Positions 3,981 through 10,616 of a stretch of DNA of 14,055 nucleotides are shown here, in pieces; position 1 is the stretch's first letter; the number at the start of each line of letters is the position of its first letter. The position numbers and the translations under genes are program-made. Source of the stretch: a virus (lineage: Duplodnaviria > Heunggongvirae > Uroviricota > Caudoviricetes); IMG/VR virus record IMGVR_UViG_2778261354_000013, positions 1-14,055 of that record. One strand, written 5' to 3'. The notes under the pieces were generated by a model. It saw only the letters and a program-made list of their open reading frames with translations. It had not been told where the DNA came from and made no database searches.

Positions 3981-4147
3981 TGGGCGGCTCCTTCGTTGTT
4001 CCGGCGTTCCCGGAGTTCGGTCAGTGCTGCCAGTAAATTTTCCCACCACGTTTCTTCCACAACCGGATTGTGTCGTGAAAGCAGCTGCTGCGCTGACTCA
4101 ATCATTTTCTTCAGGTCTTTGTCGCTGATCTTCCTGATGTCGTTCAT
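3977..4147 (-). CDS. Hypothetical small protein, 56 aa
   Basis: Start at ATG 4147 (MNDIRKISDK...) with AAGGAG SD 6 nt upstream; its stop overlaps the start of the next gene (ATGA). Confidence 0.5.
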   Translation of the reverse strand: MNDIRKISDKDLKKMIESAQQLLSRHNPVVEETWWENLLAALTELRERRNNEGAAQ

Positions 4148-4182
4148 GGTGTGCTCCTTTGGTTTGCTGTTTCTGGTCATGT

Positions 4183-4599
4183 TCATGGTCTTTGTTGCCT
4201 GCGTGATTGCCTGTTGGCGGCCGAATGCACATAGCGGGCAATTGCCGCTTTTCGGTTAACGGCGGCCAGCGTTCTTGCCAGCTCTTCGTTGAGTTTTCTG
4301 GTCTGTTTTTCCCGGTACTCCGCCATGATTTTTCCGACGGGGGTCAGTGGTTCAGGTTCTGATATGGCGCGACGAGGACGTACGGCAACGATGAATGCGC
4401 TTCTGTCGGCGTTGATTCTTGCAGTCAGGATGTCGGTCATGACGGTATCTGTGCTGCGATCTGGGTTTGCAATCGTGATTTCCAGTTCGTCGCCTGGCTG
4501 TGGTCGAACACTGACGCCGCTCAGCGTCAGTGCCGGAATGCGTCCGCTCATGATGGTGCTGAAATCATGGCGCTGGAGTACGCAATGGAATCGTGTCAT
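4183..4599 (-). CDS. Hypothetical protein, 138 aa, translationally coupled to gene A
   Basis: ATG at 4599 overlaps the A stop (ATGA); GGAGGT SD 7 nt upstream. No recognisable motif; the C-terminus is a basic helical tail. Confidence 0.6.
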   Translation of the reverse strand: MTRFHCVLQRHDFSTIMSGRIPALTLSGVSVRPQPGDELEITIANPDRSTDTVMTDILTARINADRSAFIVAVRPRRAISEPEPLTPVGKIMAEYREKQTRKLNEELARTLAAVNRKAAIARYVHSAANRQSRRQQRP

Positions 4600-9231: not shown

Positions 9232-9813
9232 TCATATGCTCAGGAATGGCGTTGGGAAGCGCTGCCAGATTTCTGACACGACCCTTGCCTGGTAAATGGC
9301 ATCGCCCAGTGCAGTGTGAGCAATGGTCTCTTTGCCTGATCGGCCTGGTATTCCCCAGCCGGAGGACTTAGCCATGTCGATAAGCGAGCGCATACAGCGC
9401 TCGTTCCAGTAGCGCCACGGAATACTTTTTTCTCCGGTTGTTCGCTTTATGGCTGATCTCAGGATTGGGAAAACAAAGGATGCGCCCTTGCACCATACGA
9501 TTAGTTGATTGCCCATGGTTTCGTCTTGCATGTTGCGCGAAATGAACGCCAGAAATTCGGTTACTGCCGCAAGTTCTGTTCCCTCTGCGTTGAGCAGGCA
9601 GGATCTGGCCTCCGCGGATTCCCCGGCCCACCATAAGGCGGTTGATGCATTGACGGTTCCGCCGTTGCGCTCTGAATCCACCGGGTCGATGTATTTCTCA
9701 AACTGCTTGCCCAGCTTTCCGGTGAACGGGTCGAAAAACACCGCGCCGATCGCGAATATGACTGCATCCGGTCCGGTACCCAGTGTTTCGGTGTCGATCA
9801 TGAGATGGTTCAC
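9232..9813 (-). CDS. DnaQ-like (DEDDh) 3'-5' exonuclease, 193 aa
   Basis: Exo I motif MIDTETLG and Exo III motif HTALGDAIYQA. Start proposed at GTG 9813 (AAGGAG SD 8 nt upstream; GTGA overlap with the upstream stop); ATG 9801 is an alternative. Confidence 0.75.
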   Translation of the reverse strand: MNHLMIDTETLGTGPDAVIFAIGAVFFDPFTGKLGKQFEKYIDPVDSERNGGTVNASTALWWAGESAEARSCLLNAEGTELAAVTEFLAFISRNMQDETMGNQLIVWCKGASFVFPILRSAIKRTTGEKSIPWRYWNERCMRSLIDMAKSSGWGIPGRSGKETIAHTALGDAIYQARVVSEIWQRFPTPFLSI

Positions 9814-10034
9814 TGTGTGCACTCCTTCTGTTCGGCGTTGTTCGTGAGCGTTGCAATCAGTCGTTCAATGGATGAACATGTTTCCAGCGGGGAGGTGTGC
9901 TTCTCTCTCGCCGTGTTAACCAGGTCACTCAGTAATTCGCAGATATGTGCACGCTCGGCTTTTCTTGCGGCCATGCTGATGTGTGCATGATGGTTAACTG
10001 GTCTGGCGGTTGTTGGTGATTCGACTATTCTCAT
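9810..10034 (-). CDS. Hypothetical protein, 74 aa
   Basis: ATG 10034 with AGGAG SD at 7 nt. Shares short colinear patches with the 7591-7815 protein (AERxHI ... LxNN). Confidence 0.55.
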   Translation of the reverse strand: MRIVESPTTARPVNHHAHISMAARKAERAHICELLSDLVNTAREKHTSPLETCSSIERLIATLTNNAEQKECTQ

Positions 10035-10134
10035 TTGTTGACTCCTGAAAAAAGACAAAGGGAAGCCGAAGGCATGAATGCCTTAATTAATTGTTCGTGT
10101 GTTTTCTGGTGTTATTCCGCGCCTGCTTTCAGCT

Positions 10135-10239
10135 TCAGATTATCCCCAGATTCTTCAGCGCTAACCATATAAGCGCGCACACCTGAAATACCAACCATGC
10201 AGTGGCGATATTCAGTATTATTATTTTCACGTGCTTCAT
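10135..10239 (-). CDS. Possible small hydrophobic peptide, 34 aa (MKHVKIIILNIATAWLVFQVCALIWLALKNLGII)
   Basis: Translated by hand from the minus strand; not in the ORF track (below its length cutoff). ATG 10239 lies 12 nt after the upstream peptide's stop with a weak AGAG SD. One predicted TM segment. Confidence 0.25.
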   Translation of the reverse strand: MKHVKIIILNIATAWLVFQVCALIWLALKNLGII

Positions 10240-10251
10240 AATCTTTTCTCT

Positions 10252-10377
10252 TTATTTACGGCGTTTGTCGCCAGTAAAAAATAATTCGACATCCTTCAGT
10301 GTGTGGATAATTCGCATAACGCCGATTGCCATAAGCACGGATATAATCAGAATTACCCATGAAAGGAATATGCTCAT
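10252..10377 (-). CDS. Small single-pass membrane peptide, 41 aa (MSIFLSWVILIISVLMAIGVMRIIHTLKDVELFFTGDKRRK)
   Basis: Translated by hand; AGGAG SD 7 nt before ATG 10377, whose start overlaps the upstream gene's stop (ATGA). Hydrophobic N-terminal helix and charged C-terminal tail. Confidence 0.45.
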   Translation of the reverse strand: MSIFLSWVILIISVLMAIGVMRIIHTLKDVELFFTGDKRRK

Positions 10378-10616
10378 GCTGCCACTCCTGTGAAGTAAGG
10401 CTCAACAATTTCACCTTCAAACAGTTCTGTCATAATCGACTTTAATTCTTCCAGTGCTTCACGGTCATCGCTGCCCAGCGCGCAGTTATACAGTCCCATA
10501 ATTGCGCCGCGCAGTGAGTTACGAAGGCTTTCATCCTTAGTTACGCCCCGGTTTGCAAGTTCGAAGTGGTAACGCTGCAACGCGTTATTAATAAGTATTT
10601 TGTAGGCTTCGATCAT
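10374..10616 (-). CDS. Hypothetical protein, 80 aa
   Basis: ATG 10616 with AAGGA SD at 7 nt. No motif recognised. Confidence 0.55.
   Translation of the reverse strand: MIEAYKILINNALQRYHFELANRGVTKDESLRNSLRGAIMGLYNCALGSDDREALEELKSIMTELFEGEIVEPYFTGVAA

Follow-up and report, generated by a model that had tools for sequence, protein, structure and literature searches.

Introduction

Temperate coliphages encode small products in their early operons, among them Kil of phage lambda (47 amino acids) and Fil of phage 186 (75 amino acids). Bacteria possess small membrane-protein regulators such as AcrZ, MgtS, MgrB, and CydX, which have fewer than 50 residues, one transmembrane (TM) helix, and no catalytic domain, and which act via contacts between the TM helix and a larger membrane protein. 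Type I toxins (Hok/Gef, TisB, Ldr, Ibs, and Zor) are likewise short hydrophobic peptides with a charged end. Phage P88 encodes an ortholog of the gene described here, i.e., gp07 (YP_009113050.1), a protein of 37 residues (MSIFISWLVLIISVACAIGIMRIIHSVKKIERFFTGE) that is listed in RefSeq as "membrane protein". Bacterial small membrane-protein regulators have been reviewed (PMC12648545), and type I toxin systems are, according to the same review, also carried by prophages.

We analyzed a 14,055-nt stretch of viral DNA (the window), which represents a P88-like prophage (genus Xuanwuvirus, family Peduoviridae, P2-type). A first-pass annotation had proposed that its minus strand encodes a small hydrophobic peptide of 41 residues, followed 12 nt later by a possible second one of 34 residues. 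Both ORFs were confirmed, at 10252-10377 (P1) and 10135-10239 (P2). P1 is an ordinary but genuine small membrane-protein gene, and beside it P2 is a weak candidate ORF.

Results

P1 and P2 lie in the early lytic operon of a P2-type prophage

Both ORFs are located within the early lytic operon, so that the early-operon setting originally proposed is real, and the relatives have the P88-type operon order. The rest of the window matches P88-type phages. When the region itself was compared with phage records using megablast there was no match, and hence no near-identical phage record, and its phage relatives were recovered by protein search only. It does match 31 E. coli chromosomes, with 85-92% identity. 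The gene order in these is integrase, C-type repressor, Cox, DUF4761, DUF4754, a 126-nt "hypothetical protein" gene, a gene for a 76-aa protein, 3'-5' exonuclease, ParE-like protein, Dam methylase, and replication endonuclease; the integrase, C repressor, Cox, DUF4761, DUF4754, P1, exonuclease, and replication endonuclease are found in the relatives and also in P88. Based on Pfam and PHROG matches, the neighbors of P1 are DUF4754, DUF4761, phrog_22206, and an Rv2179c-like exonuclease. For the early operon, which runs leftward, there is a promoter-like site at 11492-11464, in a promoter scan whose total was at chance level (3 sites found versus 3.1 expected). For the gene at 9810-10058 (minus strand), the ORF list places the start at a TTG at 10058 (82 aa); PGAP orthologs and an AGGAG at 10043-10047 favor an ATG at 10034 (74 aa).

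P1 is a genuine protein-coding gene

The features at the start of P1 are as follows.

10252..10377, minus strand: P1, predicted gene for a 41-aa single-pass membrane peptide (ORF, orthologs, intact in 96/96 loci, dN/dS)
10374..10377, minus strand: ATGA start/stop overlap of DUF4754 and P1, a signature of translational coupling (96/96 loci)
10385..10389, minus strand: Shine-Dalgarno (SD) sequence AGGAG of P1, 7 nt before the ATG and within the 3' end of the DUF4754 gene
10374..10616, minus strand: upstream partner gene of the DUF4754 family, 80 aa (Pfam PF15946, E = 1e-15; phrog_2549, E = 1.8e-28)
10202..10393, plus strand: antisense 63-aa ORF, rejected as a gene (stops; purifying signal weaker than in the P1 frame)

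The ATG of P1 overlaps the TGA of the 80-aa DUF4754 ORF. This overlap and an SD sequence, both pointed out in the first-pass annotation, were present in all of the 96 related loci, and the encoded peptide (MSIFLSWVILIISVLMAIGVMRIIHTLKDVELFFTGDKRRK in the window) was intact in every one of them. The calculated duplex of the SD with the anti-SD sequence had an energy of -7.0 kcal/mol in the window and a mean of -5.9 over the 96 loci, versus a background of -2.2. A hydrophobic stretch of 19 residues (residues 3-21) has a Kyte-Doolittle (KD) value of 2.74, and AlphaFold2 models a single helix, so the prediction of one TM helix in P1 holds. The window has 44 ORFs of 30-60 aa with an ATG start in its six frames, and only 3 of them reach a KD value of at least 2.3. 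P1 and P2 are two of these three, and they are adjacent; the pair is therefore not typical background. The third is a 40-aa ORF at 4137-4259 on the plus strand (MSFMVCSFGLLFLVMFMVFVACVIACWRPNAHSGQLPLFG; KD 2.94), which is antisense to the operon and partially overlaps a 138-aa gene at 4183-4599. This antisense frame may have arisen by chance.

P1 is conserved under purifying selection. Among its 36 unique nucleotide versions, there were 22, 10, and 33 variable sites at the first, second, and third codon positions, respectively, and the P1 frame had by far the strongest synonymous excess of the six frames (binomial p = 4e-4), being the sole frame with a clear purifying signal. The dN/dS ratio was about 0.1-0.2, with a range of 0.09-0.27 against the P88 clade, a comparison in which synonymous sites were close to saturation (pS about 0.67) and pN was about 0.20. 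P1 is 68% identical to P88 gp07, versus 41% for the adjoining DUF4754 protein. Given the high nucleotide identity, the conservation of P1 across mosaic backgrounds could in part be due to recombination rather than selection. The first-pass annotation had proposed conservation among related phages as one check, with a lack of conservation of both peptides, or conservation of the antisense frame instead, as the outcome that would count against the proposal. The antisense ORF exists, but it is open in only 17 of the 36 unique P1 sequences and interrupted by stops in the other 19, and its synonymous bias is much weaker than that of the P1 frame. The check thus comes out in favor of P1.

The P1 family is compact and confined to Escherichia prophages

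P1 is not new, but is already catalogued under the PGAP label "hypothetical protein" in E. coli genomes. The statement in the first-pass annotation that it was absent from the ORF track is true of that track, where only the length cut-off was responsible; the NCBI pipeline does annotate the 126-nt ortholog, in every E. coli relative inspected. RefSeq "hypothetical proteins" of E. coli that are P1 orthologs include WP_016232595.1, WP_062851068.1, and WP_000021647.1. P1 belongs to a family of small membrane peptides from P88 (gp07) and other Xuanwuvirus phages, with which it shares full-length similarity (profile E-values of 1e-15 to 1e-22). An ATGA overlap directly after DUF4754 was found in 96/96 loci, including the window and P88, and P1 has the single N-terminal TM helix predicted for the family.

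The P1 coding block was found in 154 of 5,426 complete E. coli genomes, and a P1 relative is encoded on 263 IMG/VR contigs; in most relatives, homology extends precisely to the stop codon of P1 and no further. When 5.8 billion proteins were searched with a profile, about 152 clusters of the P1 family were obtained, and those that were named were all "hypothetical protein" from E. coli, E. albertii, or E. fergusonii, with no Pfam domain. In an exhaustive search of 1.84 billion representatives with a HMMER profile, just 20 proteins were recovered; all were close P1 members or fragments, and there were no distant relatives. There was no significant match to P1 among the models of Pfam, PHROGs, NCBIfam, and PADLOC; matches to Pfam DUF6007 (E = 0.02, 15 bits versus a cut-off of 26.7) and NCBIfam TatA (E = 0.15) were set aside as noise due to TM composition. 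A literature search by peptide sequence found no paper containing that of P1. The family is thus compact and restricted to one phage genus in Escherichia prophages. A P88-type P1 locus (L016, NZ_JBQPOM010000071.1) lies on a 226-kb contig labeled Vagococcus sp. WN89Y, i.e., a Firmicute genus. Such a host is unexpected for a family of Escherichia prophages, and the label may reflect contamination or mislabeling of the assembly.

Predicted anatomy of P1

In 76 distinct full-length members, the near-invariant positions were M1, F4, S6, W7, L10, I11, A17, G19, R22, I23, I24, K28, I30, and E31. Position 13 is S or A, which creates a small-xxx-small pair with A17. The helical periodicity of conservation over residues 3-24 was modest, and its significance marginal (moment p = 0.03). 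The AlphaFold2 model of P1 is one continuous helix from residue 2 to 38, with a pLDDT of about 90 over the TM part. The N terminus is uncharged and the C-terminal half is basic; by the positive-inside rule, the N terminus is expected to be outside and the C terminus inside. Alleles of 45 aa with a frameshifted C terminus are common (the E. coli proteins P0055, P0067, P0072, and P0074, ending in ...FFLTNNSTNKTPD), and P0072 alone represents 63 member sequences. From about residue 33 onward, the tail can therefore be replaced and is not strictly required.

P2 is a lineage-specific candidate

Downstream of P1, we considered the following features.

10135..10239, minus strand: P2, candidate 34-aa hydrophobic ORF of uncertain coding status (open frame, weak purifying signal)
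10116..10251, minus strand: insertion/deletion segment of ~136 nt that contains P2, bordered by AATAA microhomology (alignment of the window with loci L002 and L012)
10035..10134, minus strand: conserved 100-nt intergenic block with the palindrome AAGGCATTCATGCCTT (10069-10084), upstream of the phrog_22206 gene (ATG at 10034)

The P2 peptide (MKHVKIIILNIATAWLVFQVCALIWLALKNLGII) has a hydrophobic stretch at residues 6-24 with a KD value of 2.34. It had been put forward only as a possible peptide, and this caution was appropriate; the open frame is real, with a weak purifying signal within a narrow lineage, but there is no SD sequence and most relatives lack P2 altogether. We consider it a lineage-specific hydrophobic ORF that is a candidate gene on weak evidence, and put the probability that it is a translated, functional peptide at roughly one half. 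With about the same probability, P2 is not a gene at all, and the segment is instead a non-coding spacer or an RNA or regulatory element, in which an open hydrophobic frame arose incidentally in AT-rich, T-rich sequence. Several observations support the latter explanation. The mean SD energy for P2 (-1.8 kcal/mol) is at the level of background (-2.2). P2 is also the fastest-evolving piece of the region, with 82-86% identity compared with 92-98% for P1 and 95-99% for the downstream intergenic block, and its total divergence (15/102) is similar to that of P1 at synonymous sites. In 11 of 16 loci, the last 3-5 residues of P2 are altered by a 1-nt deletion, and the single codon indel lies within an ATA repeat, where slippage gives 3-nt steps with or without coding. 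A search of 5.8 billion proteins, with two natural variants of P2 concatenated as the query, gave no match, and thus no prediction by a gene caller; there was also no match in a tblastn search against phages, although the low-complexity filter may mask matches of this kind. Finally, the 136-nt segment, which occurs in about 21 of 5,426 complete E. coli genomes, is cleanly missing from E. coli 2013C-3033 (L012) and from all P88-type phages. P2 is absent in L012 and therefore dispensable in nature.

Other observations argue for a gene. P2 is open in all of the loci having the segment (26/26, i.e., 16 + 10), as 31-34 aa in 7 alleles from two clades. Between the clades there are 7 synonymous versus 8 non-synonymous differences (dN/dS 0.15-0.26), the replacements are conservative and hydrophobic, and a synonymous excess was seen in the P2 frame (binomial p = 0.037, from just 15 substitutions) and in none of the other five. 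Scanning of viral and metagenome contigs with the invariant intergenic hairpin as an anchor added no strength to this test, since it recovered only P2 alleles that were already known; the DUF4754 protein, used as an anchor in genome contigs, gave no confirmed relative, and its alignment was too divergent for seeding scans. The ATG of P2 is 12 nt after the TAA of P1, a distance compatible with re-initiation. Paralogy of P1 and P2 was not supported by protein tests that were controlled for composition (p = 0.12-0.45).

Mosaic junctions and the intergenic block

The 100-nt block is 95-99% identical among relatives, compared with 82-91% for the flanking coding sequences, and it is retained in variants that lack either P2 (L012) or P1 (L013). 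It had no Rfam match, and its fold z-score (-0.39) was not significant. In phage 186, anti-terminated terminators are annotated at the analogous place, and the block may be a terminator, a processing site, or a recombination linker. P88-type phages (L009:2854-2939) and most IMG/VR loci have, after the P1 stop codon, a non-coding spacer of ~85 nt that is unrelated to the segment and different from the intergenic block of the window, with a conserved hairpin (ATCCGCATTCGCGGAG) directly upstream of the ribosome-binding site of the next gene.

A mosaic breakpoint coincides with the DUF4754/P1 overlap (10374-10377). In L018 and L002, the DUF4754 gene has only 54-55% nucleotide identity to the window, whereas P1 just downstream has 92-98%. 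At the same ATGA junction in E. coli SCU-106 (NZ_CP053234.1), P1 is replaced by an unannotated hydrophobic ORF of 34 aa (MSSTLIIIASWVILLASFVVSYFVVKLLTQYLNL; L013:1379-1483; also L113), which is present in four E. coli genomes, near-identical to one another, and in one metagenome contig. This peptide resembles the TM core of P1 (SWVIL; composition-controlled shuffle p = 0.004). The DNA alignment had suggested that it was a P2 homolog, but protein tests did not support this (p = 0.27-0.81), and tblastn against phages gave no match, subject to possible masking by the low-complexity filter. It can be said that a small TM peptide is regularly found at the position following DUF4754.

Discussion

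The explanation that we favor, and regard as probable, is that P1 is a single-pass inner-membrane peptide of the early operon that binds and modulates a membrane protein or associates with itself, with P2 being a lineage-specific ORF for which the evidence of a gene is weak. Residues 3-21 of P1 would form the TM helix, with the N terminus toward the periplasm, and the juxtamembrane MRII motif, an amphipathic stretch, and the basic tail would face the cytoplasm. Translation would be coupled to that of DUF4754 via the ATGA overlap, helped by the SD sequence of P1 itself, and production of the peptide would therefore begin upon infection or induction, when the early promoter becomes active. The nearly invariant polar or small residues within the TM segment (S6, W7, S/A13, A17, and G19) would favor specific helix-helix packing, from which we infer binding of an integral membrane protein of the host or phage, or self-association. 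P1 would thus act as a specific binder of a partner, or of itself, rather than as a generic membrane poison, and its most likely role appears to be modulation of a membrane partner early in lytic growth. If P2 is translated, re-initiation 12 nt after the P1 stop codon would supply a second small membrane peptide. A more elaborate version seems rather unlikely, i.e., that the S6-W7...A17-G19 face of P1 docks on an inner-membrane machine of E. coli (such as a transporter, a component of the divisome or elongasome, or a protease like FtsH) and reprograms the envelope early, with P2 as a re-initiation partner of opposite topology in a two-peptide module.

The first-pass annotation had also suggested a Kil- or Fil-like role, or a toxin-like one, and neither assignment survived comparison with the known families. 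In favor of an inhibitor of host cell division that would resemble lambda Kil or phage 186 Fil in its role and target the divisome from the membrane, one can cite the position of P1 in the early operon, which is analogous to that of fil and dhr in phage 186, and the fact that phage early operons often hold genes for division inhibitors. However, Kil, Fil, and Dhr have no TM segment (best KD values 0.49-1.26, that of Fil being 1.26, against 2.74 for P1), and there was no sequence similarity in shuffle-controlled tests (p = 0.14-0.94 overall); for local alignment with Kil, p was 0.39 for P1 and 0.70 for P2, and for Fil it was 0.14 and 0.49. Lambda CIII and phage 186 Dhr similarly have no TM segment and no similarity to P1 or P2. 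With no pointer specific to the divisome, we judge division inhibition possible for P1, but decidedly unlikely. A membrane-damaging type I or Hok/TisB-like toxin, formed by P1 alone or with P2 and held in check by an antisense RNA, is very doubtful. P1 does have the size, single TM helix, and charged tail typical of type I toxins, and there is an antisense promoter-like site within it at 10326-10353. Of the 96 loci, only 17 have a site that passed the scan, and the P88 clade has lost it; moreover, the number of promoters found in the scan was at the level of chance, as noted above. Type I loci are expected to have a conserved antisense promoter, and their own promoter and structured 5' leader; P1 is instead coupled within an operon, via the ATGA overlap and an SD sequence inside the upstream coding sequence, with neither a promoter of its own nor a long leader. 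There was no Rfam match to an antitoxin RNA and no Pfam match to a toxin, and the polar and small residues conserved in the TM helix point to specific packing.

The small size of P1, its predicted inner-membrane location and early expression, and its restriction to one phage genus and one host genus would also be consistent with a phage-versus-phage function, i.e., an early superinfection-exclusion or envelope-modifying peptide like Imm or Sp of phage T4, which blocks entry of competing phage DNA during lytic growth. Against this, PADLOC defense HMMs gave no match at E <= 10 for P1, P2, or the L013 peptide, there is no homology to any exclusion protein, and a lytic operon that is repressed would not protect lysogens; superinfection exclusion is therefore possible, although unlikely. 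A role as holin or antiholin was rejected, since P1 lies in the early operon between DUF4754 and the exonuclease rather than in a lysis cassette beside endolysin or spanin genes, and has no Pfam or PHROG match to a holin. That the conservation of P1 reflects a function at the nucleotide level, for example an mRNA structure or a linker for recombination between mosaic modules, and not the protein, might be argued from the 92-99% identity of P1 and the downstream intergenic block where the adjoining DUF4754 gene falls to 54%, with the mosaic junction exactly at the DUF4754/P1 overlap. It is nevertheless highly improbable, because against the P88 clade the protein is kept (pN about 0.2) while synonymous sites approach saturation, third-position variation is dominant, and the signal is specific to one frame. 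A host-targeting membrane role, as first suggested, is plausible.

The main yield of this work is a clean-up of annotation: P1 is real and catalogued as hypothetical, P2 is only a candidate, and the labels Kil, Fil, and toxin should not be attached to either. If a target of P1 were found, this would add a phage member to the small list of membrane peptides of less than 50 aa with defined partners, and would provide a function for a gene that about 3% of complete E. coli genomes carry, O26, O111, and other STEC lineages among them. We consider follow-up of P1 and P2 worthwhile only within broader work on small membrane peptides of phages.

How, then, does P1 compare with the systems described at the outset? 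It resembles lambda Kil and phage 186 Fil in being a small early-operon product of a temperate coliphage, in an operon position analogous to that of Fil, but unlike P1 they have no TM segment, and their sequences are dissimilar. With the type I toxins it shares a short hydrophobic sequence with a charged end; it differs in having no antisense RNA gene, no independent promoter or leader, and no match to their families, and in being coupled within an operon. Like AcrZ, MgtS, MgrB, and CydX, it has fewer than 50 residues, one predicted TM helix, and no catalytic domain, and by analogy their action through TM-helix contacts with a larger protein may serve as a working model for P1, which, unlike them, is phage-borne, is encoded in a lytic early operon, and has no sequence relationship to them. 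The closest likeness is to P88 gp07 and the RefSeq orthologs. Like P1, these follow DUF4754 in the early operon with the 4-nt ATGA overlap, and they share with it 54-98% identity over 37-41 aa and the TM core MSIF-SW--LIIS---A-GIMRII; the P88 gp07 type ends in ...FFTGE (37 aa), and the P1 type of the window carries a DKRRK extension (41 aa).
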